From contig CAZIOA010000001.1 in the NCBI GenBank assembly GCA_964540835.1, forward strand, positions 1 through 42,951: a DNA stretch of 42,951 nucleotides, read 5' to 3'. This document shows, piece by piece, positions 1,432 through 34,481 of this stretch (its first letter is position 1; every line of letters starts with the position of its first letter). A program made the position numbers and the translations under genes. The notes beneath the pieces are model-generated. The model was not told where the DNA came from. It saw only the letters and a list, made by a program, of their open reading frames with translations, and searched no databases. This stretch comes from an uncultured Candidatus Saccharibacteria bacterium. GTDB lineage: Bacteria > Patescibacteriota > Saccharimonadia > Saccharimonadales > Saccharimonadaceae.

Positions 1432-3216
1432 CTAGCGTGCAGGCGCGAAGTTGCCCATGAAATCGTTTACCTGATCTACGATCTGATGCACAGGAGCTGG
1501 TGCTTCCGGTGGCGGAGGAGGAAGCTGGAATGCCGGTGCCGGTGGTGGCGGTGGTGGAGCAACTGGTGCAGGCGCAGGTGGCGCTACTTCTACGGGTGCT
1601 GGTGGTGGCGGTGGAGGCGGTGGAGCCACTTCCACGGGTGCAGACACTGCTGGTGCAGGTGGTAGCTCTACAGCAGGAAACGCTTCTTTTGCAACCTCTA
1701 CTGCTTTGTCGACAAGCTCTTTGACGGTAGGTTTGGCTGCTGGCACCTCAATGGGCACCTCTGGCGCTTGCGGTGGTGCTGGGACAAAATCCTCGACAGC
1801 ATCTTTCACTGCATTAACCGTGTCCTCGATGACTTCTTGAGGAGTAGGGAGCTCGGGAGTTTTAGCTTTTGGTGCCGCGGCAGCAGGGAGCGCATTTTTG
1901 AGCGCTTGAGGCACATCGAGTGGCGGCAGTACGTTCATATTTACCGTAGGAACTGACTCAGGCCGCAAGACAGAGTTTGGAATCTGCGCGATTTGATTCA
2001 GGTTGTGCTGCAACGAGTTCAAGCCATTTTGAATCGTCAACCCGGTATTGTGCAACGCTTGTCCAGGATTCATGATGGTGTTTTGTGTGCTGAAAAGCGC
2101 CTCGGCGACCATGTTTGGTACTTTGTTGACGAGTTCTAGCCCGAAGTCCACGAGAACACCAGGTACAAACCGAGTCATGACCCAGAAGAGATTTCCCGTG
2201 TTTAGCTGCTGATCCAGCGCGCGGGCAAACTCATCGACGGCGCACTGTCCGTTGACTTCAGGCAATCCGTCACGACCATTGTTGATCGGGAAGGCACAGT
2301 TCGCTGCTTTGTTCCAGTGGTCGTTGACATACATGCCGTTTGCCGCCGCTGCCTGTACGAGCGGATGAACGCCGACATCGTAGCGGAAGTGGATGACGCC
2401 ATACTCGTCCTGCCAAACCATATCCGGATTTCGGTCATGTACCGCATGAGCGGGGCTGGCACCTGTCGCGACGGCCTGCCACAAATTGCCGACCAAGTAT
2501 TGGTTCGCGCCGTTGCCCCAGATGTCGTTTTGCGACGAATGTTCATGTGAGCCTGGAGGAAGCATGGCGTTCATATCAACACCGGCAAGTGCCGCCCACG
2601 GCTCGCCAACCTTGCCCGGCAGACTGTTCCAAAAACCAGTCGAACTGGCTGGACCACCGTAGGAAACGACGAGTACATTTGGCGGTAGCACACCACCATG
2701 CTCACTGGCGATCATATGACCAGCGCGAGCGGCAGCGTCGGCTCCGAGCGAATGACCAACGATAAAGACTGGTTCGCCTCTACTGATTGCGCCACGTGAT
2801 GCTTCGACAGCTCTTACCGCTCCCTCCTCAGAGCATATCTTCATGCGGGCGACATCTGCGCAATACTCGATAGGTACGACGTTGTCTCCGGGACGAATCC
2901 AGCCTTCATGGTGCAGCTGGCCGATTGTACCGCTTGCATTCCAATCACCAAAACCACCTATCACATATTTGTTGACGGCGGAAAGATCAATCTCGTACGA
3001 TTTTGCCACCTCTTGCACGCTTGTTTGCGGTTCGCTCTCAGACGACGCCAGCATGCCGACGCCAGCCGTGACGACTATAGGCGCTACAGCAAGAGCCCCT
3101 AAGCTCCTGAGTGTATCGAGTTTGCTTCTCGGTTCTTTGTCATGGTTAGTAGAAAAACTTTCAAGCCCTCGTATAGTCAGCGCTTGCTCCCCTGAGGCAG
3201 ACCTTTTTTTACCCAT
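1432..3216 (-). CDS. Secreted or anchored lipase/esterase-like alpha/beta hydrolase with poly-proline C-terminal tail
   Basis: 594-aa ORF. N-terminal hydrophobic anchor (LGALAVAPIVVTAGVGMLA), classic nucleophile elbow VGHSLGA, and a tail of about 130 aa rich in PPPPPPPP/APAPV repeats. Block LDQQLNTGNLF is shared with 3369..5885. Confidence 0.85.
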   Translation of the reverse strand: MGKKRSASGEQALTIRGLESFSTNHDKEPRSKLDTLRSLGALAVAPIVVTAGVGMLASSESEPQTSVQEVAKSYEIDLSAVNKYVIGGFGDWNASGTIGQLHHEGWIRPGDNVVPIEYCADVARMKICSEEGAVRAVEASRGAISRGEPVFIVGHSLGADAAARAGHMIASEHGGVLPPNVLVVSYGGPASSTGFWNSLPGKVGEPWAALAGVDMNAMLPPGSHEHSSQNDIWGNGANQYLVGNLWQAVATGASPAHAVHDRNPDMVWQDEYGVIHFRYDVGVHPLVQAAAANGMYVNDHWNKAANCAFPINNGRDGLPEVNGQCAVDEFARALDQQLNTGNLFWVMTRFVPGVLVDFGLELVNKVPNMVAEALFSTQNTIMNPGQALHNTGLTIQNGLNSLQHNLNQIAQIPNSVLRPESVPTVNMNVLPPLDVPQALKNALPAAAAPKAKTPELPTPQEVIEDTVNAVKDAVEDFVPAPPQAPEVPIEVPAAKPTVKELVDKAVEVAKEAFPAVELPPAPAVSAPVEVAPPPPPPPPAPVEVAPPAPAPVAPPPPPPAPAFQLPPPPPEAPAPVHQIVDQVNDFMGNFAPAR

Positions 3217-3368: not shown

Positions 3369-5885
3369 TTAGTTAAATAGGTCGAAACCGACAGCAGGCG
3401 CAGATGGAGCGCTCACGGCAGGTGCCGATGGTTTCGGCACTGGAATATCAAACTTCGGGAGGGACGGTGCAGGTAGTGAATGTGCCGGACTTGGGGTGAA
3501 TTGCTTGACTATAGAAGGGAGTTTGAACGATGGAAATGCTGGCGCGGGTGCTGGCGGTGGCGCGGGTGCTGGCGGCAGCTCTACGACTGGCGGCTTTGGC
3601 GGTGGAGCGACGCGCACAGGAGCAGGCGCTGGCGCGGGTGGTATATATACCGGCTTGGGCGTTTCTAAGCGAGGCGGCTTCGGAGTATCTGCAACGACAG
3701 GCTTTGGCTGCTGTACCGGTTTAGGTGACGGAACTTCATAGGCTGGCGCATCGATGACACGTGGCGGAGTTGGGTCCGGGATCGAATGCACGGGCGGAGG
3801 AGTGATGGCAATCCTATGCTCCACGATGTCGTTGAGCGACTGGCGAGCAGGCTCCGCAGGGGATTTAGGAGCATCCACAGGGGGAGGTGTTTCTACTCGT
3901 ACATGCGTCGGAACGCTATTTGGCTGATCGTCAAGGATATCACTCGCCAGCTGGCCTAGCGATGCCAGTGAGTGTTGAGTAGTTTGTTGTGCCGGGTGAG
4001 GAGCAGTTTGTCGCGAGGCATTGGCAGACGCTAACTCTTGAGCAGTCATGGCGGCATATTGGATGAACTGATCGGCAATCATATTGAGCTCACGACCGAA
4101 GTCCATGCCAGTGTACTGTTTGATCTGGTCTCTCGCCGTGTTGACAACGAAGTTCTTGCCGTCACCAAGTGCGTTTTCGATGACGTGATCGACTTCGCCC
4201 ATGAGTTTGTTGATTTCGCCCATAACAGTGCTAAATGCACGTTGAGCGGCATTAAACTTCGTCAATGGGTCGACATTTGGATCATTGATAATCGCAGCGG
4301 CTTCACCGACAGCGCCTGCCATATGGTTAAAGCCATTCCAGCTATCATCCATCAGCTGCTTCCACGGCTCGGGCATATTCGCTACCAATGTCTGGAAGAA
4401 ATTGCCGGTACCAAACTGCGCGTCAAGTGCCTTGGCTCCATAATGTAGCGCTTCACGAACATTTGCTTCCGGTGGCGGTGCGTTCGGATCGTCATTGCGC
4501 GGAAAGAGGGCACGGAGCGCTCGATTAGCACTCTCGGTGTCCATGATCCTGATACCAGCCCTTTCAAGCGCATCAACGACCCATTCGTTTTCGCGGTGAG
4601 CAACCCAGTGCTCGATGCCGTTCGCATCCTTAAACATCGTCCATGTCACGCTCGGATCATTGCGATCAGGCACCTCATGAGTGCCGTGAGGAATACCGGC
4701 GATGCTATACATGAGGGAAGTAAAGCTTTCGTTGCCACCACTGGCATATGGGTCACGATCATTGTAGAACATGCGTATCTTCGCGCCAGGAGGAAATGCT
4801 TGCTCACCACCCGTGTCGCGGAGACCGATTAACCCCGTGCCGAGTTTGCCCCAAGGACTCTTATCTATACCCTCGGCTCCTTGCGGCCCACCGATCATAT
4901 CGATCGTCAGGTCGCCTGGCCACTTGTTGCCATTTTGCCGATATACGTCCCAGGCAAAATCCTGCCCGGCATACGTACCGAATGAATAATAGATGAAGTG
5001 CGCGTGTTCGCCGCGCGACTGGGATTCCTGGTATCTTGCCATGGAGACTGCCGAGCCCTCTTCAATCGACGTTTCTGGTGATCTAAAGGGGTTACCGATA
5101 CCCATATCGGCAGACCAAGTCATACCTTCGTCACGATTACCAGGAGCGTAACCTTTGGCGTCAAACTCCGGCATAGGAGCCATGACCTGGGTATTGCCAC
5201 CCATACCGTAAGACCTGGTCGTCACCACTGCGTGCTCTATCGTGCCCACTGAAGACGCGTATGAGACGGCAGCATTTTTCGCTTCGCGATCTGGCTTGTC
5301 GGCATGTACGCCACCAAAGAGTACTACGCCAAGCGCCGTGCCACCAGCAAGCACGGTCGCCATGGCTTTTGGCGCTGCGTCAGACGCCAACTCCTGTAAA
5401 CGAGCGGCGGAGCGACTAAGCGCCTTTTTCGTCCTCGTCGACAGTGGATCTTCATCGTTGATTTTAGTCTTTTCGCGTCTCTCCATGCGCGCCTGCAGCA
5501 CAAGTGTTCGCTCCTCTATAGTGTGCTCGCGATGATTCTGCCATTTATTTTGTGCAAAAGTGTAGGCATTTTCGGCCGCCACCACGAGGTTGCCACGAAC
5601 CTGTACGGCTTTTTCTCGAACATGTGTCAGCGATTCAGCGACACCCGCCGCGACCGCGTGCCGATAGTCGACCGGCTCATCCGAGTTTTTATCGAAGTCA
5701 AATAAATTTTCTTCGACCTCCTCACCGCGAAGGTATTTATAGATAGATTCGAGAAACAAGTCACTACCGAGGTCATCCAGCCCCTCTTCCGAAGCGAGAT
5801 ATTGCTCCATTTCTCGATCATGAGTAGCCAAGGCATCTAACGATACTTCAACCTCTGTCTCAGTTGTTACTAAACCTCGACTCAT
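3369..5885 (-). CDS. Membrane-anchored paralog of the poly-proline-tailed hydrolase family (possibly degenerate nucleophile)
   Basis: 838-aa ORF. Charged N-terminal region of about 170 aa, one TM (AMATVLAGGTALGVVLFGGV), core with YYSFGT elbow-like motif and LDAQFGTGNFF block homologous to 1432..3216, and a Pro-rich tail of about 200 aa (PAPAPAPV, PPAPAPPPAPAPAF). Confidence 0.8.
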   Translation of the reverse strand: MSRGLVTTETEVEVSLDALATHDREMEQYLASEEGLDDLGSDLFLESIYKYLRGEEVEENLFDFDKNSDEPVDYRHAVAAGVAESLTHVREKAVQVRGNLVVAAENAYTFAQNKWQNHREHTIEERTLVLQARMERREKTKINDEDPLSTRTKKALSRSAARLQELASDAAPKAMATVLAGGTALGVVLFGGVHADKPDREAKNAAVSYASSVGTIEHAVVTTRSYGMGGNTQVMAPMPEFDAKGYAPGNRDEGMTWSADMGIGNPFRSPETSIEEGSAVSMARYQESQSRGEHAHFIYYSFGTYAGQDFAWDVYRQNGNKWPGDLTIDMIGGPQGAEGIDKSPWGKLGTGLIGLRDTGGEQAFPPGAKIRMFYNDRDPYASGGNESFTSLMYSIAGIPHGTHEVPDRNDPSVTWTMFKDANGIEHWVAHRENEWVVDALERAGIRIMDTESANRALRALFPRNDDPNAPPPEANVREALHYGAKALDAQFGTGNFFQTLVANMPEPWKQLMDDSWNGFNHMAGAVGEAAAIINDPNVDPLTKFNAAQRAFSTVMGEINKLMGEVDHVIENALGDGKNFVVNTARDQIKQYTGMDFGRELNMIADQFIQYAAMTAQELASANASRQTAPHPAQQTTQHSLASLGQLASDILDDQPNSVPTHVRVETPPPVDAPKSPAEPARQSLNDIVEHRIAITPPPVHSIPDPTPPRVIDAPAYEVPSPKPVQQPKPVVADTPKPPRLETPKPVYIPPAPAPAPVRVAPPPKPPVVELPPAPAPPPAPAPAFPSFKLPSIVKQFTPSPAHSLPAPSLPKFDIPVPKPSAPAVSAPSAPAVGFDLFN

Positions 5886-13123: not shown

Positions 13124-13199
13124 GGGGGACGCGCTGAGCGCTTACGGGGTCAGCTCAGCGCGTCCCCCGCCCGTCGCATACATGTGACGGGCACTTTTT
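13124..13199 (+). terminator. Tandem hairpins ending in a Rho-independent terminator
   Basis: GGGGGACGCGCTGAGC/GCTCAGCGCGTCCCCC (16-bp stem, 13124-13168), then GCCCGTC-gcatacatgt-GACGGGC followed by ACTTTTTA (13169-13199). Confidence 0.6.
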
Positions 13200-13249
13200 A
13201 TATCTGCATAATATAGCTCTAGTATTTACGTATAATGAGAGAAGGCTTG

Positions 13250-14428
13250 ATGAAGAATTTTTGGGACACGCTACCACGACCATTTTTTGTACTGGCTCCT
13301 ATGGAGGCAGTGACTGATGTTGTGTTTCGTCATGTCGTGGCAGCCGCTGCGCCGCCCGACGTATGGTTTACTGAGTTTACCAACGCGACCGGCTGGGCGC
13401 ATGCAGGCGACAAGGCGATTGGTGAGCGATTGGTGAAAACGGACGACGAGAATCCGATTGTCGCACAGCTATGGGGAAGTGATCCGGCATCAATGAGCAA
13501 GCTTGCCAAACACTGTAAAGAGCTCGGCTACCATGGTATCGATATCAATATGGGATGTCCCGACAAATCAGCCGTCAAGAGCGGCGGAGGAGCGGGTATG
13601 ATCATGAATCCAGAGAATGCGGCTGCCATCATAACGGCAGCGAAAGAGAGCGGACTACCTGTCAGTGTAAAGACTCGTCTGGGTTACAGCAGGGTTGATG
13701 AGTGGCGAGACTGGCTGGCGCATCTGCTGAGACAAGACATCGTGAACCTGACGATACATCTCCGTACCAAAAAAGAGATGAGCAAAGTGCCAGCGCATTT
13801 CGAATTGATACCAGAGATCAAACAACTTCGTGACGAAATAGCGCCACAGACCTTTTTGACGATCAACGGCGATATCATGGACCGCGCGCACGGCATGGAG
13901 CTGGTCGACAAATACGGCGTCGATGGGGTAATGATAGGTCGCGGTATCTTTCACAATCCGTTCGCTTTTGAGAAAGTGCAGCACGAACCGTCCCGTGAAG
14001 AATTGCTTGGTCTACTAAGACTTCATCTGGATTTGCACGACCATCATGACAGTGTATCCCGCATTTCACACCTGGATGAAGCGCAAGGCGCCATTGAAGC
14101 ACGGCACGAACCGTACAAAAGGTACGGTGGAGTGAGTACTAGAGATGACAACGCAGCGATTCGCCAGGAGCCACCAGCGCAGGTAGCTGATGCTGCCTGG
14201 CAGGGTGGCGGTGTGAAAGGCGGGCGAAAGTTTGATCCGCTCAAACGTTTTTTCAAGGTGTATATGCATAGCTTTCCCGGAGCCGCAGAACTGCGAGATC
14301 AACTCATGCATACGAAAGACACTCAGGAAGTTCGCGCGGTTCTTTCTCAATTCTCAAGCATCCCACGACCCACGCGCTTGGATGCAGTACAAGGCGCTGG
14401 TGAAGCACGCAGCGAGTCGTATAGATAA
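13250..14428 (+). CDS. dus: tRNA-dihydrouridine synthase (Dus family) carrying an in-frame repeat-element insertion and a repeat-encoded C-terminus
   Basis: FVLAPMEAVTD and GIDINMGCP Dus motifs; C-terminal helical-domain sequence RKFDPLKRFFKVYMHSFPGAAELRDQL. ATG at 13250 follows GAGAAGG. The ORF-track ATG at 13235 overlaps the TATAAT box. Confidence 0.85.
   Translation: MKNFWDTLPRPFFVLAPMEAVTDVVFRHVVAAAAPPDVWFTEFTNATGWAHAGDKAIGERLVKTDDENPIVAQLWGSDPASMSKLAKHCKELGYHGIDINMGCPDKSAVKSGGGAGMIMNPENAAAIITAAKESGLPVSVKTRLGYSRVDEWRDWLAHLLRQDIVNLTIHLRTKKEMSKVPAHFELIPEIKQLRDEIAPQTFLTINGDIMDRAHGMELVDKYGVDGVMIGRGIFHNPFAFEKVQHEPSREELLGLLRLHLDLHDHHDSVSRISHLDEAQGAIEARHEPYKRYGGVSTRDDNAAIRQEPPAQVADAAWQGGGVKGGRKFDPLKRFFKVYMHSFPGAAELRDQLMHTKDTQEVRAVLSQFSSIPRPTRLDAVQGAGEARSESYR
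14064..14218 (+). repeat. Palindromic repeat element, copy A (inside the dus coding frame)
   Basis: Closing inverted repeat TTTCACACC/GGTGTGAAA. Internal hairpins CCGTAC-aaaag-GTACGG and CAGGTAGC-tgat-GCTGCCTG. Collinear with copies B and C. Confidence 0.85.
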
Positions 14429-14532
14429 TACGACGAGCGAGTACTGGAGCCAAGCAACGCAGTAATGAGCCAAAAGCACTGCAGCGCAGCGGTCTGTGAC
14501 CGCTGGCAGGCAGTGCAGTGCGTGGTCGTGGG
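14362..14532 (+). repeat. Palindromic repeat element, copy B (spans the dus 3' end and stop codon)
   Basis: Closing stem CCCACGACCCACGC/GCGTGGTCGTGGG. Hairpins GTCGTAT-agata-ATACGAC and GCACTG..CAGCGGT-ctgtg-ACCGCTG..CAGTGC. Very similar to copy C. Confidence 0.85.
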
Positions 14533-15492
14533 TTAGATAGGTAGGTTGATAAAGCTAGTCAGGCTACCCAGCAGACCCGACGCATTGCCAGCCATACCGT
14601 TTGCTATGCCGATCTGCGACGTGATTGCGGAGAATGAACCCATCAACCCACTCAAGCCCCCCAGACCGCCGAGCATACCGCTCAGATCGCTGATATTTCC
14701 AAGGTTGCCCAGATTGCCCAAGCTACCAAGACCGCCCAGACCGCCCATCATGCCGCTAAATGTCGCGACGAGCGCCATGACCAGCGTGATCGATGAAGCA
14801 AGTATAGACCCGATGGTAGTCATCATGGTAGAGATATTGTCAAGCTGAGACTGTGCGGAGGTGACGACTCCTTCGCCGTTAAGATTCAAGTCCACGCAAG
14901 TGCTTTTGTCCGTGTTGCCAGACAAGCACTTCCTGATTTTTGCTATTTGGCTCTGTAGCCCTCCGGCAGTTTTCTTGAGCTTGTCAAATACGCCAGACAA
15001 GCTCTCTATCGCTTTGGTTACGGCCGCTTGTACGTCCGTCAGTTGCGTGATCTGGAACTGCGCGTCGATATTCTTGGCAAGCGACTTCAAGTCACCCAGT
15101 GACATGGTGTTCGTGACTTTTTCCTGCATGGCTTTGAGCTGCTCAATGACTTTTTCGATGAACTTTTTGACTTTGTCTTTGAACTCGCTCGGCAATGTGT
15201 CTTTGTTTTTTGTGGTGTCTTTGTCGTTCAGGCCCTTTACCTGAAACGTTGTGCCGTTGCTGCTGATATGGATGTCTATGCTCAGGCTTTTTCTTGTTTT
15301 TTCGAAGTTTTCCAGACGGCGATCAATTTCTTTGAGCACCTTCTGCTTGAGCTCTTTGACTGCCTGCGTTTCGGCAGCGGCTTGTGCGTTTACCGTGGCT
15401 ACTGGCACCGATACAGCCAACAACATACTCATAAATAGCAGTGCGCATGCAGATACGGCCCTTGATGTGAAACGGGGGAGAGTGATATTCAT
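14533..15492 (-). CDS. Secreted coiled-coil protein with Gly/Leu-repeat hydrophobic C-terminus (hypothetical)
   Basis: Signal peptide MNITLPRFTSRAVSACALLFMSMLLAVSVPVATVNAQA, long K/E-rich helical region, and a C-terminal GGLGGLGSLGNLGNLGN...GGLGGLSGLMG tract. Confidence 0.65.
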   Translation of the reverse strand: MNITLPRFTSRAVSACALLFMSMLLAVSVPVATVNAQAAAETQAVKELKQKVLKEIDRRLENFEKTRKSLSIDIHISSNGTTFQVKGLNDKDTTKNKDTLPSEFKDKVKKFIEKVIEQLKAMQEKVTNTMSLGDLKSLAKNIDAQFQITQLTDVQAAVTKAIESLSGVFDKLKKTAGGLQSQIAKIRKCLSGNTDKSTCVDLNLNGEGVVTSAQSQLDNISTMMTTIGSILASSITLVMALVATFSGMMGGLGGLGSLGNLGNLGNISDLSGMLGGLGGLSGLMGSFSAITSQIGIANGMAGNASGLLGSLTSFINLPI

Positions 15493-19022: not shown

Positions 19023-19409
19023 TCATGTCGTCGCCTCCTCGCCGCCGCTGATTTGAAAGTTGCCAGCCAGTACATCCGATAGTTTCCGCCGTGGCTTGAT
19101 TTTGGGCTTGATACCACGCTTGCGGTTATAGTCCTCCTTCGCCCAGCCATAGAGGTTACGGACATCTTCACCATTCAGTCCGGTCTCGTATTCAACCTGT
19201 AGGATTTTAAGTATCCTTGCCGGACTATAATCCTGGTCGATAAACTCCTGACGACGTTGCTCGTATATAGCAAAGAGGTTCACGTCGTCCCTCTGCTCAA
19301 AGTCTGCCTGAAGCTCCCTGAGGTACTTAGGTAGCTTCTTGATATAACCAAAGTCCTGCTCCTTTTTGACGGGAAAACGAGTTAACTCCGGTTGCTTCTC
19401 GGTCATCAT
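19023..19409 (-). CDS. Unknown 128-aa hydrophilic protein embedded between atpG and atpD
   Basis: The start ATG overlaps the atpG stop (ATGA). Highly charged, no TM. The last 10 codons copy the atpG 3' end (ISGGEEATT vs ISGGVEAMK). Confidence 0.6.
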   Translation of the reverse strand: MMTEKQPELTRFPVKKEQDFGYIKKLPKYLRELQADFEQRDDVNLFAIYEQRRQEFIDQDYSPARILKILQVEYETGLNGEDVRNLYGWAKEDYNRKRGIKPKIKPRRKLSDVLAGNFQISGGEEATT

Positions 19410-20275
19410 TTCATCGCCTCCACGCCGCCGCTGATTTCGGCGAGTTCCTGTGTGATCGCGCTCTGGCGGGCTTTGTTCATGGCGAGCGTCAGGTCATCGA
19501 TCAGGTCGCTGGCGTTGTCGGTCGCGTTTTTCATGGCGAGCATACGCATGATGTACTCGCTGGCACGGGCTGTAAGCAACGCGTGGTACACTTGCGCCTC
19601 GACGAGACGATACGTCACAGCAGCCAGCACTTCCTCGGCACTTGGCTCAAATGTCGCTTGGCGGACAGCTTCGCTCACCTCGGTTTTTTCAAACCCGGCT
19701 GGCAATATACGCTGCACCGTCGCCTCTTGCTTGACGGTCGAAACAAATTCGGTAAACACGATATCGACAGCATCGACGTCGCCGTTCTCAAACGACTCTA
19801 CCGCAGCGTCGACAATCGCGCGCAGCTGGTTACCGGCTGGATCGTCGGGCAGATCCTGGTATGCGGCAGTAACCTGTGTGTCTTTGAGCCTTGAAACGAA
19901 ACGGTTAGCACGACGACCGACGGCTATGGTTTGGTTTTTTATGCCAGCCGCATCGTCGTCGAGCAACTGTCGGGCGTAGAGTTTGAGTACGTTGGCATCG
20001 TATGCACCAGCAAGACCTTTGTCAGTCGCAATGACGATGAGCATGCGGCTTTTGATCTTGTCGCGCCTTTGAAACAGCGGATGTCGATCAGTTTCGCCCT
20101 GCGCAGCAAGGTGGGTCAGGATCTCACGTGCAGCGGTCGTGTATGGACCTGATGCTTTTTCGGCTTCCTGAGCCTTGCGCATCTTGCTAGCTGCCACAAG
20201 TTGCATGGCCTTGGTAATCTGCTTGGTCGATTTGACCGAGCGGATACGGGTTTTGAGCGCGCGGGTACTAGGCAT
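19406..20275 (-). CDS. atpG: F1 ATP synthase gamma subunit
   Basis: MPSTRALKTRIRSVKSTKQITKAMQLVAASKMRKAQ N-terminus and ITQELAEISGG C-terminus are typical of gamma. Confidence 0.95.
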   Translation of the reverse strand: MPSTRALKTRIRSVKSTKQITKAMQLVAASKMRKAQEAEKASGPYTTAAREILTHLAAQGETDRHPLFQRRDKIKSRMLIVIATDKGLAGAYDANVLKLYARQLLDDDAAGIKNQTIAVGRRANRFVSRLKDTQVTAAYQDLPDDPAGNQLRAIVDAAVESFENGDVDAVDIVFTEFVSTVKQEATVQRILPAGFEKTEVSEAVRQATFEPSAEEVLAAVTYRLVEAQVYHALLTARASEYIMRMLAMKNATDNASDLIDDLTLAMNKARQSAITQELAEISGGVEAMK

Positions 20276-20615
20276 CCTTAACCTCCCGAGCTACTTTACC
20301 AAGTGCTTCCTGTTTTGCGCGTCTTTGATTCTTTAGAAATTTATGAGATGGAACCGGAGTGTACTTTGAGTAAACGCCACTCCGACGCATAAGCCGCTCC
20401 GTAGCTGTCACTCGTTTTACCTCATCAGCTGTGTCTGTGTTATCTATCGCGCTAAACACCGCGCGTGCAGCTTGTCGATCAGCCAGTGTTTCATCGATAT
20501 CATCATTGGCCGCAGGCGCCTCGCGGTTCACGCGTCCACGTGCAAGCAGATCGGCATCAGCGCGGGCCCATCCGTCCAGCATTTCCATACTTTCGTCCGA
20601 CAAGTGTTCGGTCAT
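20268..20615 (-). CDS. Unknown 115-aa acidic/basic protein embedded between atpA and atpG
   Basis: Starts 3 nt after the atpA stop and overlaps the atpG start by 8 nt. No TM and no recognisable motif. Confidence 0.55.
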   Translation of the reverse strand: MTEHLSDESMEMLDGWARADADLLARGRVNREAPAANDDIDETLADRQAARAVFSAIDNTDTADEVKRVTATERLMRRSGVYSKYTPVPSHKFLKNQRRAKQEALGKVAREVKDA

Positions 20616-23334: not shown

Positions 23335-23383
23335 AATATTTTCTCCTTTAGTTTATTACTTTAAATTATATATTATATCGTTA

Positions 23384-23507
23384 CAACCTGCACATTTGAG
23401 TGCAGTTCGGGATGAAAAGCGAGCACCGCAGCGAAGACGTACACAAAACGTACGGCGAAGCGAGGAGACGGAGCTTTACATCCGAAATGCGCCAAATGTG
23501 AAGGTTG
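23384..23507 (+). repeat. Palindromic repeat element, divergent short copy D (atpB-atpE spacer)
   Basis: Closing stem CAACCTGCACATTTG/CAAATGTGAAGGTTG (14 of 15 paired) and GGATGAAAAGC/GCTTTACATCC. The central GCACCGCAGCGAAGACGTAC-acaaaac-GTACGGCGAAGCGAGGAGACGGAG aligns with the left half of copies A-C. Confidence 0.6.
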
Positions 23508-23511
23508 AACA

Positions 23512-24366
23512 TCATTCTGTCTGGACAGCCGCTTTGTTACGGATATCAGCAGATGAATGATCGTCAGAAGTGATGTCGTGCGCATCCTCAAGCACCGTGT
23601 GGCTCTCTACTGCCAGTGCCGTGAAGATAACGGTCAGGATAAAGAACACGTACGCCTGGACAAAGCCGATAAACAGCTCAAATAGCAGGAATGGCGGCAA
23701 CGCGACGACAGCGACGTAACTCGTCAAGACTCCAATGATGACGAGGAGGATCTCACCAGCGAAACAGTTGCCAAACATTCGGACGCTCAGCGCCGCGTAT
23801 CGTGAGAATTCTCCGATAAACTCAAGGACACCTTCGAAAGATCCGATCGGATCCTTGATCGGATTGCGGAAGTATCGTTTCAGGCTGCCAATGGGACCAT
23901 GCACGCGCAACGCGTAGTATTGCACCATGATCAGCACGATGATCGCGACCGCAAACGTGAAGTTCAGATCAGCCGTGATCGCGCGAAGTACTGGCGCATC
24001 GTTCCAAAAGATCGAGTCGAGTCCCGGCAACACGCTCATCCAGTAACCAGCCAGCATGAAGAAGAAGATCGTCAATGCAAGCGGTGCGACCTGGCGAGCG
24101 ATCTTTTGGTCTGGGATGACGCTATACACCTGACCGAGCATGCCTTCAAACGCCCACTGCACGAGTCCGACGAAACGATTATAGCGACCGTTTTTGACCA
24201 TGTAGGCGACGTAGCCTAGCACGCCAAAAAGCACGATGAGACTCAGTCCGCCAGTCAACAATGAGTTCGTGATCGGAAACCCGCCGATACTAAACAACTC
24301 TTGTGAAGCGACGTGGATCTCGATCCCGCCTGACGTAGACGCAAAATTACTCAACATACTCATCAT
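23512..24366 (-). CDS. atpB: Fo ATP synthase a subunit
   Basis: Multi-pass membrane protein with a conserved-Arg region (YAALSVRMFGNCFAGE) and an acidic C-terminal extension of about 35 aa. Confidence 0.9.
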   Translation of the reverse strand: MMSMLSNFASTSGGIEIHVASQELFSIGGFPITNSLLTGGLSLIVLFGVLGYVAYMVKNGRYNRFVGLVQWAFEGMLGQVYSVIPDQKIARQVAPLALTIFFFMLAGYWMSVLPGLDSIFWNDAPVLRAITADLNFTFAVAIIVLIMVQYYALRVHGPIGSLKRYFRNPIKDPIGSFEGVLEFIGEFSRYAALSVRMFGNCFAGEILLVIIGVLTSYVAVVALPPFLLFELFIGFVQAYVFFILTVIFTALAVESHTVLEDAHDITSDDHSSADIRNKAAVQTE

Positions 24367-28239: not shown

Positions 28240-29865
28240 ATGGGTAATCATGAAACCGAAAAATATGACGATTTTGAGACGATAGAGGGTGAGTCGGTCA
28301 TCGTTTGTATTGACGGCGTATCCAAGATCGAAGAGATGTTCGGTTCCGAATCGCTCTCAGCCCCGACAAATCTAGAAATTGAAAAAGACGTCAACTGGCC
28401 TCGACCGACAAAAAGCATGTCAGTCGAGCTGCTGCCGCTCGAAACAGATATCGACGGGGCGACCCTCGCTACGCGATCAATCAGTACAACGCTAACGTTT
28501 CCAAAATTCAAAGAGATTCCAGATGACGCGCTTGTATCATTCATAACGAATCGCCTCCACGAGGAAACGGGGATACACACGGATTTTTACCCGACGATTC
28601 ATGATGGCGACCACATGGAACACTGGATTTGCGCGCATGATGAATACGCCCTCGTATTTCAAATGCGGAGCAAGGAAAATGAACTATCGCTCCGCGCGTA
28701 TTCTGAGTATGACGATGTACCGGACAAAGATCAGATCAATAGACGTAAGTTGCAGCTGTTCTACATAGCTTCCACGCTCGCGCTCGACGCGTTGGCCAGC
28801 CAACTACCAAATCAAGAAATGAACACACAACGAACTCTCATACGCATTTCTCCTCCTGAAATTAATGAGGAGGGGTTAGAGCAAGAGACAGATGAAACCA
28901 ACGAGCCGGAGGACGCACCTGGAAAGGAATTGGAATTGTGGGTCGGTGAGGAAGAAGCGCCTATAAGGGAGCTGCTTGGACGACCATTTGATACCATCGG
29001 TGGACTGACGCTCGCCAAAGAAAAGTTACTCGAAATAGGTCTCGCATGGACATATCCCGAACTCGCCAAAGAATACGACATACAGCCTTCGCACTTCGTC
29101 CTCCATGGCCCTCCCGGTACGGGCAAAACCTCGCTCATAACGGCCTTCGCCGAAGAATTCGACGCAGAGCTTGTCGCAAAGCCTTCAACCACAATCGTGA
29201 ACGCTTATCTCGGTAAATCAGCCACGAATCTGGCCGACGCATTCAAAGAAGCAACTGACAAGGCAGAAAAGCAAAGAGTCCTATTGTTTTTTGACGAAAT
29301 CGATTCGTTAATAGGAAATAACAGCAAGCAACACCGCGAATACGGCCAGGTAGTAAATACGTTCAAACAGGAACTCGATAATCTAGCCAAATCGCCACAC
29401 TGCAGGAACGTCATCGTAGCGGCAGCGACAAATGCCGATATACAAGACCTCGAACCTGCGATCGTACGCTCTGGCAGGATCGAACCGATTCCCGCGCCAG
29501 CGCCAAACGAAAAAGAGCGCATAGATATCTGGTCGCGACTTATCTACACGTCCGAAGATATCAAAAGAGAAATCGATGCGGTGCAAAACGACAAAGATGA
29601 CGACGAAGAGCTGGTTGCCGCCAGCAAACTGAACCCGTCTCGCTTCGACAAAGATATCGATATCGGCAAACTTGCCAAATTGACCGAAGGAAAAACCGGA
29701 GCCGACTTCGTACAGATTTTGAAACGGATCCGCGTCAAAAAGTTTCGTCAAGCAGTCGGGCTCATAGCTTCGGGCAGACAAATAGAGCATGACGAAAATC
29801 CCCACGTCAAACTCATCACGCAAGTCGATATCGAAGATGCTATACGAACGTTTGGCGTGACTTAG
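28240..29865 (+). CDS. Classical-clade AAA+ ATPase with a unique N-terminal domain of about 270 aa
   Basis: Walker A HGPPGTGKT, Walker B LLFFDEIDS, second region of homology ATNADIQDLEPAIVRSGRIE. Single AAA module. Confidence 0.85.
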   Translation: MGNHETEKYDDFETIEGESVIVCIDGVSKIEEMFGSESLSAPTNLEIEKDVNWPRPTKSMSVELLPLETDIDGATLATRSISTTLTFPKFKEIPDDALVSFITNRLHEETGIHTDFYPTIHDGDHMEHWICAHDEYALVFQMRSKENELSLRAYSEYDDVPDKDQINRRKLQLFYIASTLALDALASQLPNQEMNTQRTLIRISPPEINEEGLEQETDETNEPEDAPGKELELWVGEEEAPIRELLGRPFDTIGGLTLAKEKLLEIGLAWTYPELAKEYDIQPSHFVLHGPPGTGKTSLITAFAEEFDAELVAKPSTTIVNAYLGKSATNLADAFKEATDKAEKQRVLLFFDEIDSLIGNNSKQHREYGQVVNTFKQELDNLAKSPHCRNVIVAAATNADIQDLEPAIVRSGRIEPIPAPAPNEKERIDIWSRLIYTSEDIKREIDAVQNDKDDDEELVAASKLNPSRFDKDIDIGKLAKLTEGKTGADFVQILKRIRVKKFRQAVGLIASGRQIEHDENPHVKLITQVDIEDAIRTFGVT

Positions 29866-29968: not shown

Positions 29969-30190
29969 ATGACAGAAGCTGGTATACATCTGATGGCAAG
30001 TCTATTTGGAGCATTCATCGGAACTCTTGCCATAATCATGCTCGTGATCATGGTGGTAACGGTCATGGTGAAAGTGGTAGCAAGAGTCGCCACGATGATG
30101 GGATTCGATCAGCTTGAGTTCAGGATGAACTACTGCGTGCCTGAGGGCATCAAGGAAGCGGAGAAGTACGCAAACTCTCCCGCATCCTGA
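29969..30190 (+). CDS. Small membrane protein (73 aa) between the AAA+ and Pup-ligase-family genes
   Basis: Strong RBS GAAGGGAGGG 4 nt upstream. Hydrophobic residues 8-45, polar C-terminal tail. Confidence 0.6.
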   Translation: MTEAGIHLMASLFGAFIGTLAIIMLVIMVVTVMVKVVARVATMMGFDQLEFRMNYCVPEGIKEAEKYANSPAS

Positions 30191-30295: not shown

Positions 30296-30376
30296 TCTCT
30301 CTTTTTGGCTCTTTCTCTCAGTGGTAACAAATAGGCTATTTTATATTTGCGCCTATACGCGTATAATGTGCCCTCA

Positions 30377-31804
30377 ATGAAGGGACTTGGGAGAAATACA
30401 ATCGATGATTTCCGGTATGGCGTACCGGAGCGTGCGTTTGGCAGCGAAGTCGAATACACGCACCGGAGGGAAATCGTGCAACCGTTTAAAGATCGCTACC
30501 TTGACGCACCCGAATCCCAGCTGATTTTTTATGTTTCGCCTGAATACGCGGTTGCGCCAGGCAGGAATCATCATGACAGTGTGATCACGAGGAACGGCGG
30601 CGAACTGTATCTTGACTTGACATCACTGGAATTCGCGACACCGGAATGCCGGACACCAAGCGAGCTGGTAACGCATGAACGGGCTGGTGAAGTGATCGTC
30701 GCAGATGTCGTCGACCGACTATCGAATCACTTCGGCACGAAAGAAAAAGTTTTCAAACGAACCGGTTATGTGGACACCGTGGTGGCCGACAAGCGATTCA
30801 GTCAAGACAGTATTGGATATCACGAAAGCTATACAAGCATGAACGAATTCACGACACACTCGGCGTCGACAGCATATGGCAAGGAAACAAAAAAGCTCAA
30901 GGAGGCGCAGTGCTTATGTGATTTTCTCGCGCTTCGAAAACTAATCGACGGCGCGGGAATGGTAGCAAATAATCATTTTTCACTAAGCCAAAAAAGTCGC
31001 GCGATCAACTTCAATTACTACCGAAAAGAAGGCGTGAGAGGTGGCACGAAAGAACCTTTTTACATAAAATCAAGCCGTCTGGAAGTGAGGGCTGGCGAAA
31101 ACAGCAAATCCGACTGGGCAACCGAGTTTACGTTCGGGGTGACATCGCTCGTGCTACGCCTGCTCGAACATCAGCGGTATCCCGAACATTTAATGCTTCG
31201 AGACGCAAACGATGCAGCGCGACGAGTTGCCAGAACTCCCAATGCGGCAGTCGCACTGCAGTCCGGAATAACCATGCGTGCAATCGACGTCCTGAAAGAA
31301 ATCGTCGAAGAAGCATACGCGCTCGCAAGCGCATACCCGGATATGCCCGAGTATGAAGAAAAGGCGTTTCAGGACTTCCAAAAATTCTATGCCGACATGC
31401 ACCGGATCAGCTTACGTGATCACGATGTCAAGGCCCTTGCAGATCGAATCAACTGGGCGGCGAGGTTCGACTTTTTGGTCAAGGCTGGGGCGACTTACGA
31501 TACGTTTACCGCATCAGATCTCAATCAGATCAGCCACGATCTAGTGTGGGATCGAATCGGCGAAAAAGACATCGCCCGACGCAGACTGAGCAAGTTGGGG
31601 TTGACTGCACTGACAGCTGACGTGCTAGGGCCACCGCAAACCCGCGCAGCCACGAGGATTAAGATAGCTGGCAATCTATATAAAGAAGATAACCTGCGAT
31701 CCGTCGAATGGTTCAAGGTGACGCCAAAGACTGGTGAACCCCGACTACTGGGCGGTCCACTAAATACTCAAGCCACATGGCCAGACGGCAGCCTCGTCGA
31801 TTAG
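30377..31804 (+). CDS. Pup-ligase/deamidase family protein (PafA/Dop-like carboxylate-amine ligase)
   Basis: FGSEVEY, NGGELYLDLTSLEFATPECRTPSELVTHERAGE, GYHESY, LIDGAG, LSQKSRA, RLEVRAGENS and PPQTRAATR are collinear with remembered PafA/Dop blocks. ATG at 30377 lies 9 nt after TATAAT (ORF-track TTG at 30347). Confidence 0.8.
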   Translation: MKGLGRNTIDDFRYGVPERAFGSEVEYTHRREIVQPFKDRYLDAPESQLIFYVSPEYAVAPGRNHHDSVITRNGGELYLDLTSLEFATPECRTPSELVTHERAGEVIVADVVDRLSNHFGTKEKVFKRTGYVDTVVADKRFSQDSIGYHESYTSMNEFTTHSASTAYGKETKKLKEAQCLCDFLALRKLIDGAGMVANNHFSLSQKSRAINFNYYRKEGVRGGTKEPFYIKSSRLEVRAGENSKSDWATEFTFGVTSLVLRLLEHQRYPEHLMLRDANDAARRVARTPNAAVALQSGITMRAIDVLKEIVEEAYALASAYPDMPEYEEKAFQDFQKFYADMHRISLRDHDVKALADRINWAARFDFLVKAGATYDTFTASDLNQISHDLVWDRIGEKDIARRRLSKLGLTALTADVLGPPQTRAATRIKIAGNLYKEDNLRSVEWFKVTPKTGEPRLLGGPLNTQATWPDGSLVD

Positions 31805-32791: not shown

Positions 32792-33967
32792 CTAGTTATC
32801 ATTCTCTGCGATGACTTCTTGGTAAACTTTCTCGAACTGCGGTATGACATTTCGGACATCATGCTTTTTCGCGATCTCAAGACTTCGCTTGCCATACGCC
32901 TGGCGTCGCTTCGGATGGTCGAGTAGCTGCATCAAAGCTTCCGCCATCGCTTCGACGTCATCGACGTCGATCAGGTAGCCATTCTTACCCGTCAAACACA
33001 GCTCGCCAAGCGCGCCCGCGTCGACAGCAACGACCGGTTTGCCGCTCGCCATTGCTTCGAGCATAGCCAGACACTGCAGCTCAGTCGGCGACGGCATAGC
33101 ATAGATATCTCCCACGCGATGAAGCTGCTGTAAATCATCATCAGAAACCAAACCAGTAAATGTCACGTGATCATCAAGACGCAGCGTGCTCACCAGCTCA
33201 CGCAAGCCCTCAGATGCATTGCCTGCGCCAACGATCAGAGCATGAAACTCCTTGCCAGACCAGTGCAACAACTCGAGCGCCTGCACCAGGATGTGGATAT
33301 GCTTTTCCTCGTCGAGCCGACCGATATAGCTGATGATAGGCTTACCGCGTGGTATATCAAACTTAGCGTAGATTTCATCATCTGGCTTGAGAGGTTTGAA
33401 GCGATCCAGATTGATACCATTGCTGATCGCGACAGCCGGTGCTTCGATTCGCGACAAATTAAATAGCCCCAGCGCTGATTCCGTCGGCATGATGATGCGC
33501 TTCGCGCCCTTGTATAGCAACGATCCGTACTCAGTCAAAATATAGCTGAACGGTCGCGAAACCGGCGCGAGAATCTTGATATTTTTTACCATGTTGTCCG
33601 GCATGACGTGGTTGGTCGCCACCACTGGGATACCGCGGTGCACGGCGGCTCTCAACATGCCGATACCTACCGTGAACTGCGTGTGCACATGCACGACATC
33701 CGGCTGAAACTCGTCGAGGATTCGCCGCATCTCTCGATCATACGTCACTGAAACGCGGAAATTTTTGCGAAAGTACAGACCAAACGACCGTATACGCATG
33801 ATGCGATAATTTTCGTCAACCTCCTGATAGCCGCGACCAGTCTGTGACGGCGCAACGACCATGACATCATGCCCCTGAACACTTAACCCTTGTGCGAGCG
33901 TGCGACATGCCGTGGCAACACCGCTCTTCATCGGCCAGTGCTGGTCGTTTGCAATGAGGATACGCAT
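32792..33967 (-). CDS. Glycosyltransferase family 4
   Basis: MRILIAND...GVATACRTLAQGL N-terminus and an E(x7)E-type region (PTELQCLAMLEAMASGKPVVA). Confidence 0.85.
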   Translation of the reverse strand: MRILIANDQHWPMKSGVATACRTLAQGLSVQGHDVMVVAPSQTGRGYQEVDENYRIMRIRSFGLYFRKNFRVSVTYDREMRRILDEFQPDVVHVHTQFTVGIGMLRAAVHRGIPVVATNHVMPDNMVKNIKILAPVSRPFSYILTEYGSLLYKGAKRIIMPTESALGLFNLSRIEAPAVAISNGINLDRFKPLKPDDEIYAKFDIPRGKPIISYIGRLDEEKHIHILVQALELLHWSGKEFHALIVGAGNASEGLRELVSTLRLDDHVTFTGLVSDDDLQQLHRVGDIYAMPSPTELQCLAMLEAMASGKPVVAVDAGALGELCLTGKNGYLIDVDDVEAMAEALMQLLDHPKRRQAYGKRSLEIAKKHDVRNVIPQFEKVYQEVIAENDN

Positions 33968-34004
33968 TTGATTGCCATTATACCATGGTCAAGCCTGGCA
34001 CAAT

Positions 34005-34160
34005 TTTCACACTTGGATGCAGTACAAGGCGCTGGTGAAGCACGGAACGAGCCGTATAAACAATACGGTGAAGTGAGTACTGGAGCTAGTAACGCAGTAA
34101 TGTGCCAAGAGCACTGCGGCGCAGCGGTCTGCGACCGCTGGCAGGCAGTGCGGTGTGTAA
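34005..34160 (+). repeat. Palindromic repeat element, copy C (divergent promoter region)
   Basis: TTTCACAC...GTGTGTAA ends. Hairpins CCGTAT-aaaca-ATACGG and GCACTG..CAGCGGT-ctgcg-ACCGCTG..CAGTGC. Near-identical to copy B. Confidence 0.85.
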
Positions 34161-34181
34161 ATTGTGGTAGAATAAGGGCAA

Positions 34182-34481
34182 ATGGGCAGTTATCATCCCT
34201 TTTTAAAAGCAATTCCGTACACCATTATTTTTTTTGCGATCGTACACCTGCTACTGAGCTTTTTTTATAGCATCTTGCACGGCGATCCAGACATAGCCAA
34301 CATGTTCCACGTACTTGGGTTCGATCTGTTTTGGCCCGAAATCGGCAAAGGTGGTCTCAACGCGCTCATCAGCGCCACGGTCGTCGCGCTTACTGGCATC
34401 GCTGCCGCGCTTATACTACGTTGGCGCGATCGACAGGCAGACCGCTTGCGCGAATCAACCAAACGTAAAGCAAAACAATGA
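34182..34481 (+). CDS. Small membrane protein (99 aa, hypothetical)
   Basis: Two hydrophobic segments and a basic C-terminus. Overlaps the next gene by 4 nt (ATGA). Confidence 0.55.
   Translation: MGSYHPFLKAIPYTIIFFAIVHLLLSFFYSILHGDPDIANMFHVLGFDLFWPEIGKGGLNALISATVVALTGIAAALILRWRDRQADRLRESTKRKAKQ

Follow-up and report, generated by a model that had tools for sequence, protein, structure and literature searches.

Several families of short palindromic repeats are known from bacterial chromosomes. Rickettsia palindromic elements (RPEs) are repeats of a reduced genome that have no obvious transposase, terminal repeats or target-site duplication and can sit in frame in the open reading frames (ORFs) of housekeeping genes. 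REPs near stop codons have been reported to affect the expression of the upstream gene, and the ERIC/IRU elements of enterobacteria are imperfect palindromes of approximately 127 nt in transcribed intergenic regions, with orientation-dependent effects at the RNA level. Saccharibacteria and other bacteria of the candidate phyla radiation (CPR) have genomes of approximately 1 Mb with very little non-coding DNA, and to our knowledge almost no regulatory RNAs or small mobile repeats have been described in CPR bacteria. Here we analyze a dispersed, structured palindromic element in a stretch of 42,951 nt from an uncultured Candidatus Saccharibacteria bacterium (contig CAZIOA010000001.1 of assembly GCA_964540835.1; "the window" denotes this whole stretch). 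The element belongs to a lineage-specific family with a conserved, strand-specific fold, whose members inserted at new sites in the past and whose fold is selectively kept at fixed sites.

The window contains four copies of 130–175 bases, all on the + strand (limits are given with the full closing stems, and each assignment rests on the fold together with a covariance model match). Copy A (14058–14224), a two-domain form with a three-way junction, lies in frame within the ORF for tRNA-dihydrouridine synthase (Dus; 13235–14428, +; Pfam PF01207, E = 1.8e-48; likely true start ATG 13250). This ORF not only hosts copy A but also ends within the two-domain copy B (14362–14532): the Dus stop codon (14426–14428, +) falls inside the hairpin-1 loop of B, which occupies the space where Dus and the gene at 14533–15492 (−) converge. 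Copy C (33995–34170) is a two-domain copy between the divergent GT4 gene (32792–33967, −) and an ORF at 34182–34481 (+), and copy D (23380–23510) is a divergent single-arm copy in the atpB–atpE spacer, antisense to the atp operon. The 3′ ends of B and D each lie 1–3 nt from the stop codon of a − strand gene; that of B is abutted by the stop of the convergent gene (14533–14535), and that of D is 1 nt from the stop (23512–23514) of atpB, encoding ATP synthase subunit a (23512–24366, −; Pfam PF00119). A covariance model (R1) was built from the shared 98-nt core and used to scan the 43 kb with filters off. It matched exclusively at domain 1 of A (14071–14168, 107 bits), B (14377–14474, 94 bits) and C (34012–34109, 107 bits), all on the + strand, and at D (23395–23496, +; 39 bits, E = 1.7e-8), with the next-best match at an E of about 1. 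Copy D is therefore a genuine though divergent member of the family, even with its conserved loops mostly base-paired. Relative to 200 dinucleotide-preserving shuffles per copy, the folding z-scores were −5.8 (A), −7.1 (B), −4.7 (C) and −8.3 (D), and none of the 200 shuffles of any copy was equally stable. The three full copies and the divergent fourth had already been placed at these sites by a first-pass annotation made by eye, and the stems it listed (hairpin 1, hairpin 2, outer and closing stem) can all be read in the sequence. Its estimates of identity were partly too high: over the whole element A and C are 70% identical, as it had stated, but B and C share 81% instead of 85–90% and A and B 60% instead of about 70%. 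It was silent on the in-frame position of A within Dus, the Dus stop codon within B and the − strand stops beside B and D.

The decisive result comes from copy A, where the fold is maintained even though the element is simply translated through. The copy adds approximately 52 residues in frame (RISHLDEAQ...GGGVKG) to a protein whose closest named homologues are from Candidatus Saccharibacteria. Most Saccharibacteria Dus proteins have approximately 315 aa without this insert; a 52-residue insert at the identical site is shared by the Dus of the window and five relatives (75–92% identity), and a sixth relative (P0006) has an in-frame deletion remnant of it. Matches to PDB structures stop at residue ~270 of Dus, ahead of the insert, which follows the TIM-barrel part. 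Of the three forward frames in which the conserved core can be read, a single one is free of stop codons, and it coincides with the frame used in Dus, so that the in-frame state of copy A is best explained by survivorship. For the six orthologous Dus genes, mean pairwise divergence at codon positions 1/2/3 is 0.135/0.081/0.524 in the Dus core, where the synonymous proportion of differences (pS) is 0.72 and the ratio of nonsynonymous to synonymous differences (pN/pS) is 0.15, and 0.200/0.119/0.549 in the C-terminal flank. The corresponding values in the insert are 0.181/0.222/0.186 (pS 0.27, pN/pS 0.65). Because divergence is flat over its codon positions, the insert is constrained at the nucleotide level and not at the protein level; selection acts on the fold, not on the peptide. 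Across the six orthologues 94.4% of the cells in paired columns hold a standard pair, and compensatory double changes are found in 17 of the 57 pairs. As these genes were gathered via Dus homology and not via the element, no ascertainment effect is involved. Nucleotide-level constraint at orthologous sites shows that the element is selectively retained, and the fold has thus been kept by purifying and compensatory evolution after insertion, even within the Dus ORF.

Two further features of the Dus region were observed. The Dus homologues P0068, P0046, P0047, P0079 and P0087 carry low-complexity inserts of 30–100 aa elsewhere, immediately behind the FAFA motif; this second insertion hot spot (columns 313–400 of alignment A2) is separate from the site of copy A. 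Just upstream of Dus, a G+C-rich 10-bp hairpin followed by a T-run (13169–13192) overlaps a promoter-like site (13184–13212).

The family occurs in two forms, a single-arm form of approximately 115–125 nt and a three-way-junction form of approximately 160–175 nt. The closing helix P1 has 8–16 bp and differs in sequence in nearly every copy. Inside it lies domain 1, an irregular hairpin of 98 nt with variable, co-varying stems, one of which is a fully variable inner stem of 6 bp. The unpaired, purine-rich loop segments of this domain, in contrast, are nearly invariant (GGAUG, CAAGGC, GAAGCACGGAAC, GAAGUGAGUACUGGAG and AACGCAG) and face each other as CAAGGC/AACGCAG and GAAGCACGGAAC/GAAGUGAGUACUGGAG. 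The short form consists of domain 1 directly closed by P1 (for instance at L004:16519–16640, at loci L053, L061, L062, L070, L095, L107 and L108, and in copy D), and the long form has an additional second hairpin, P3, with an internal loop, which creates the three-way junction and retains its pairing while its sequence varies. The linkers AGCG and GCAGG, which the first-pass annotation had described as invariant, are indeed constant in A, B and C, yet not across the wider family.

Covariation in domain 1 was assessed with 28 copies, using partners slid by 1–3 columns and 500 column shuffles as controls. Standard pairs occupy 92.7% of the cells, compared to 22–40% with slid partners, and double-sided changes occur in 22 of the 32 pairs; none of the 500 shuffles matched the observed values. 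Similar figures were obtained for the two-domain element (19 copies), with 92.2% of the cells paired vs. 27–41% in the slid controls and double changes in 44 of 57 pairs, among them all 12 pairs of P1 and all six of the variable inner stem. The compensatory substitution, and with it the selection on a folded nucleic acid, that had been proposed from the copies in the window alone hence extends across about 30 copies. Domain 1 contains 71 G-U but only 18 A-C cells (31 vs. 18 when two wobble-rich columns are left out), a single U-G pair is kept in 27 of the 28 copies, and the sense strand is the stabler folder in 28 of 30 copies with a mean advantage of 7.9 kcal/mol. From the excess of G-U over A-C and the greater stability of the sense strand it follows that one strand is the folded one. 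Two resemblances to known RNA motifs were considered and rejected. Hairpin 1 (GAGCCGUAU...AUACGGU) is reminiscent of the lower stem in domain V of group II introns, but the likeness does not fit, as the G-U pair is kept in only 13 of 28 copies. AGUAC opposite GGAAC does not form a sarcin-ricin (bulged-G) module either, since C85 co-varies with G45, contrary to the pairing in that module.

To determine the distribution of the family, a 17-base core pattern was scanned across one genome per species (185,579 species), which yielded 101 stretches. Using nhmmer on these, the full element was found in 14 Saccharibacteria loci and in L102, whose record is labelled just "bacterium"; the other stretches were chance matches to the 17-base pattern alone. 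A stricter pattern matched six metagenome contigs. In total, the family comprises about 30 non-redundant, well alignable copies, and all verified ones are in Saccharibacteria, which answers the earlier call for a search for further copies. A pattern scan of viral contigs gave 13 chance matches, none of which contained the element, and a phage origin was rejected on this basis. A profile of the peptide encoded by the open frame of the element, searched against 5.8 billion protein clusters, retrieved 13 tiny hypothetical ORFs and no in-frame host protein beyond Dus; this search is possibly incomplete, as the known Dus proteins were unlisted too. No genome of the Rickettsiales matched the 17-base core pattern in the genome scan, which compared the pattern alone. 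Taken together, the genome, metagenome, viral and peptide-profile searches indicate that the family is rare and restricted to one lineage. Rfam 15 had no match at gathering score across the whole window and, with permissive filters, none at E ≤ 10 in the region 13950–14650, consistent with the first impression that the element is of no nameable class. A tRNA/tmRNA scan of the window likewise found none, and our literature search turned up neither papers connecting MITEs to Saccharibacteria nor relevant work on structured RNAs. Within the scope of these searches, the element was previously uncatalogued and is the first small interspersed structured palindromic repeat in Saccharibacteria.

Comparison with close relatives shows that the element was copied into new chromosomal sites in the past, since it is present at some sites and absent from the corresponding sites of other genomes. 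In the syntenic regions of L001, L004, L113 and L116 copy B is absent and Dus abuts or overlaps the convergent downstream gene, whereas in the window B is inserted exactly between the two genes and has rewritten both C-termini; the product of the gene at 14533–15492 (−) ends 2 aa later than in L001 (INLPI* vs. INL*). The inserted DNA probably spans ~14352–14544, including TCAAGCAT on the 5′ side and TTAGATAGG on the 3′ side. The atpB–atpE spacer tells a similar story: in L116 it is empty and only 38 nt long, in the window it contains D on the + strand beside the atpB stop, and in L001 a different, internally deleted copy lies on the − strand beside the ribosome-binding site of atpE. The insertions in the window and in L001 are thus independent and have opposite orientations. 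These presence/absence differences, together with the constraint at orthologous sites, bear out the initial description of a dispersed structured element that is either mobile or recruited as an RNA motif. The target-site duplications for which a check had been proposed are not evident when filled and empty sites are compared for B and D, the junctions being somewhat ambiguous. Terminal inverted repeats shared across copies were not found, P1 being different between copies and co-varying in 12 of 12 pairs, and tails shared between copies are weak (TCAAGC and TTAGAT in some of them). In the flanks, TAA, TAG or TGA occur at variable offsets without a longer common motif; ATCTAA occurs on the opposite strand in three copies. 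No transposase, integrase or reverse transcriptase is encoded in the window or the fetched flanks. Without conserved terminal repeats and target-site duplication and with its low copy number, the element does not support the label MITE.

Two other copies are shared between genomes at orthologous positions. The copy upstream of pyrG, common to L131 (6027–6196) and L133 (4005–4215), is 79% identical between the two, while the third codon positions of pyrG differ at 60% of the sites. The 3′ strand of its P1 includes the pyrG start codon and first codons (ATGACTAAA...), so that the closing helix could mask translation initiation of CTP synthase. In L133 a nested 39-nt perfect hairpin (GGGGTCCCCACGAAAATGATTTTTCGTGGGG) is located in one strand of a variable stem of this copy (4031–4123 region), which may represent a second, smaller mobile hairpin. 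The copy directly after the arginyl-tRNA synthetase (ArgRS) gene, common to L094 and L133, is 52% identical with the same three-way-junction fold. In L133 (7830–7995) this copy folds at −91.7 kcal/mol, and there, as in D, the conserved internal loops are now mostly paired, resulting in nearly perfect long hairpins. Such loop pairing could be caused by relaxed selection on the loops combined with palindrome correction, or these copies could form a distinct subfamily.

The element is placed with a marked preference relative to neighboring genes. The 3′ ends of 18 of the 25 non-coding copies fall within −8 to +3 nt relative to a stop codon belonging to a convergent gene on the opposite strand, and the closest gene boundary on the 5′ side is at a distance of 5–339 nt (median ~45 nt). 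The adjoining stops can be TAA, TAG or TGA, which argues against a simple DNA target sequence. The convergent genes are real and mostly of housekeeping function, coding for tyrosyl-tRNA synthetase (TyrRS), ArgRS, FtsZ, EF-P, a sigma-70 factor, GreA, pyruvate kinase, MscL and the ATP synthase subunits a and beta. In six copies the 5′ end is at most 22 nt from a same-strand stop codon, and in L036 (419–661) a copy runs exactly up to a co-oriented tRNA-Glu(CUC) gene, ending at its 5′ end. Contexts thus vary from inside an ORF to 3′ ends, antisense to neighbors, or upstream of pyrG or a tRNA gene, and we found no constant position upstream of functionally coherent genes in their orientation, as would be expected of a riboswitch or leader.

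Own promoters and terminators were considered as well. An initial enrichment of −10 boxes upstream of the element stemmed from a flawed control, in which the downstream flank lay in domain 2, and disappeared upon correction (12 vs. 12), leading us to reject this indication of an own promoter. T-runs follow P1 in about a third of the copies, but these are Lys-rich C-terminal coding sequence of the convergent genes and were accordingly rejected as terminator U-tracts. A consensus scan for intrinsic terminators found none at A, C and D or on the sense strand of B; its sole match among the copies is weak and lies on the − strand within B (14491–14477). Overall, promoter and terminator consensus scans at the copies in the window gave nothing above chance. 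By reading of the sequence, the 3′ tail of C contains an extended −10-like box, TGGTAGAAT (34165–34173, +), 8 nt before ATG 34182; so short a distance suggests a leaderless or nearly leaderless mRNA. TGGTAGAAT is also found upstream of the L036 copy, and related tails (GGTTAGAT) come after copy B and the L130 and L069 copies.

In several respects the element behaves like the known families introduced above. Like RPEs, it is a palindromic repeat of approximately 100–170 nt in a reduced genome, again without an obvious transposase, terminal repeats or target-site duplication, and with copy A it has been inserted in frame into Dus and is translated. However, it occurs in a different phylum with no sequence relationship shown and at much lower copy number, Dus is the only in-frame host gene found for it whereas RPEs occupy many, and it differs further by its defined three-way junction with invariant internal loops, its constraint on synonymous sites and its flush placement at stop codons. 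REP/BIME elements and the REPIN–RAYT system share with it that they are extragenic palindromes just past stop codons, passed on vertically, strand-asymmetric and presumably reliant on an enzyme in trans; the 18 of 25 copies ending at a convergent stop agree with this pattern. REP units, though, are 20–40 nt long, carry a GTAG head and number in the tens to hundreds, whereas the element described here has a 98-nt core with other conserved motifs and few copies (four in the 43-kb window). ERIC/IRU sequences resemble it as imperfect palindromes that are intergenic, found in either orientation and conserved across species, but they are from a different taxon, have a different sequence and form a single long hairpin instead of a three-way junction; we know of no in-frame coding copies under structural selection among ERICs. 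MITEs, such as the Correia elements or the QMITEs of Coxiella that give rise to small RNAs (sRNAs) and in-frame peptides, are also short, non-autonomous, dispersed and foldable, sometimes carry outward-facing promoter-like sequences and are occasionally in frame; yet the conserved terminal inverted repeats, the target-site duplication and the parent insertion sequence to be expected of a MITE were sought in the window and fetched flanks and not found. Of the MITE, REP and RPE likenesses drawn by the first-pass annotation, those to REP and RPE therefore hold in behavior only and that to MITEs does not. The same restriction applies to our own comparison with RPEs and REPs: the element is a member of none of the RPE, REP and ERIC families.

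With a probability of roughly 0.5, we interpret these copies as a Saccharibacteria-specific family of dispersed, strand-specific structured RNA modules that behave like REP/ERIC/RPE elements. The element would act as a folded single strand, most probably RNA rather than single-stranded DNA (ssDNA), and its invariant purine-rich loops would probably form the surface at which a trans-acting protein or RNA partner docks. It would be dispersed by machinery encoded elsewhere, and the host might then retain it at the ends of transcripts for 3′-end protection, termination or insulation of convergent transcription, or for protein binding. Several observations weigh against this interpretation. Of the copies that lie between co-directional genes, 11 are antisense to both neighbors and four are sense, which implies that transcription of many copies would yield mostly the weaker-folding complement unless a copy has a promoter of its own; −10-like boxes upstream are equally frequent in sense and antisense (12 of 25 each), and no consistent U-tract follows P1. 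The copy number is low, and neither a partner protein nor a mobilizing enzyme was found in the window or the fetched flanks. In the D and L133-ArgRS variants the conserved loops are gone, yet pairing is better, and DNA-level correction of near-palindromes could give rise to such variants without any RNA function.

A more far-reaching reading, which we put forward only tentatively, is that the family represents a new class of host-maintained mobile three-way-junction RNA in CPR bacteria, whose loops bind a partner or form a catalytic or tertiary core and which works from intergenic, opposite-strand 3′-end and translated-ORF sites. If this were true, the flush placement at stop codons would reflect a link to translation termination or convergent transcription, not tolerance of insertion. 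It is also possible, though we consider it doubtful, that the copies are independently transcribed genes for trans-acting or protein-binding sRNAs, each with its own promoter in the AT-rich 5′ spacer and ending at P1, tail to tail with the neighboring gene; copy A would then be a captured paralogue expressed from the Dus mRNA. The better folding of the sense strand in 28 of 30 copies, the antisense-lying ones included, would fit such genes, and so would the asymmetry of the flanks, with no gap on the 3′ side and a median of ~45 nt on the 5′ side as room for a promoter. A 5-of-6 match to the −10 box lies within 45 nt upstream in 12 of 25 copies, but as noted the opposite strand has as many such boxes, and the spacing between box and P1 varies. 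Unpaired GGA motifs similar to those recognized by certain RNA-binding proteins occur in the conserved loops. On the other hand, the U-tract of a terminator is not consistent, the consensus scan found no promoter at C, and in L029, L040 and L108 merely 5–20 nt separate a same-strand stop codon from P1. An ssDNA element similar to REPIN/RAYT or IS200/IS605, in which the hairpin is the substrate of a Y1/HUH transposase or recombinase encoded elsewhere and compensatory changes partly result from template-switch correction of near-palindromes, is in our view unlikely. Enzymes of this kind read hairpins with conserved loops and variable stems, and the insertion differences without target-site duplication, the orientation independent of local transcription, the location of all four window copies on one strand and the more perfect palindromes of the D and L133-ArgRS variants all agree with it. 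Selfish mobility, however, leaves unexplained the approximately three-fold deficit of synonymous changes at a fixed copy in six species. The flanks also show no convincing common target motif, with adjoining TAA, TAG and TGA stops at variable offsets, neither the window nor the fetched flanks contain a gene for an HUH or any other transposase, and the copy number is far below that of typical REP/REPIN populations.

The remaining explanations concern the copy within Dus. Copy A might be an intron-like insert that is excised from the Dus mRNA, with the fold kept for excision and the open frame incidental. P1 would juxtapose both junctions, removal would restore the canonical Dus sequence, and constraint at the nucleotide instead of the protein level is what such an insert would show. 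We nevertheless regard this as very improbable, because none of the models for group I introns, group II introns or ribozymes matched, the junctions contain no bulge-helix-bulge motif, all remaining copies are intergenic, and the coincidence of the sole stop-free frame of the core with the frame used fits read-through translation with survivorship; gene callers furthermore predict full-length proteins across the insert in all six species. Practically negligible is the probability that the repeat is a protein-coding module conserved for the sake of its peptide. Copies A and C are open in the same frame, but the codon-position analysis, with flat divergence and a pN/pS of 0.65 in the insert vs. 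0.15 in Dus, refutes this idea, and the frameshifts and stop codons in intergenic copies and the mere 13 tiny hypothetical ORFs retrieved from 5.8 billion proteins by the peptide profile also speak against it.

Some additional features of the window were also observed. Extra small ORFs (19023–19409, −, and 20268–20615, −) are interleaved with the ATP synthase genes, and a 32-nt repeat (91% identical) is located at their stop/start junctions (19023–19054 and 19406–19437); the atp operons of L116 and L004 also contain extra small ORFs. Two large ORFs without Pfam match (1432–3216, −, and 3369–5885, −) contain Gly-rich tandem DNA repeats of the GGTGGxGGx type. An AAA ATPase (28240–29865, +) and a Pup-ligase family protein (30347–31804, +) are encoded close together, with a short ORF-bearing stretch (29969–30190) in between, and this pair constitutes Pup-type protein-tagging genes in a Saccharibacteria genome.

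The evidence for selection on the fold of this element is unusually clear. Copy A provides a clean natural example of RNA structure overriding protein-coding constraint, in which the housekeeping enzyme Dus bears 52 extra amino acids as the price of the fold. The rule of placement at opposite-strand stop codons is a testable clue to where the element inserts or how it acts, and the covariance model and the conserved loop motifs offer a direct route to its partner via phylogenetic profiling or pull-down. A fold of 100–170 nt that is preserved by compensatory change at orthologous sites implies an uncatalogued function in these bacteria.

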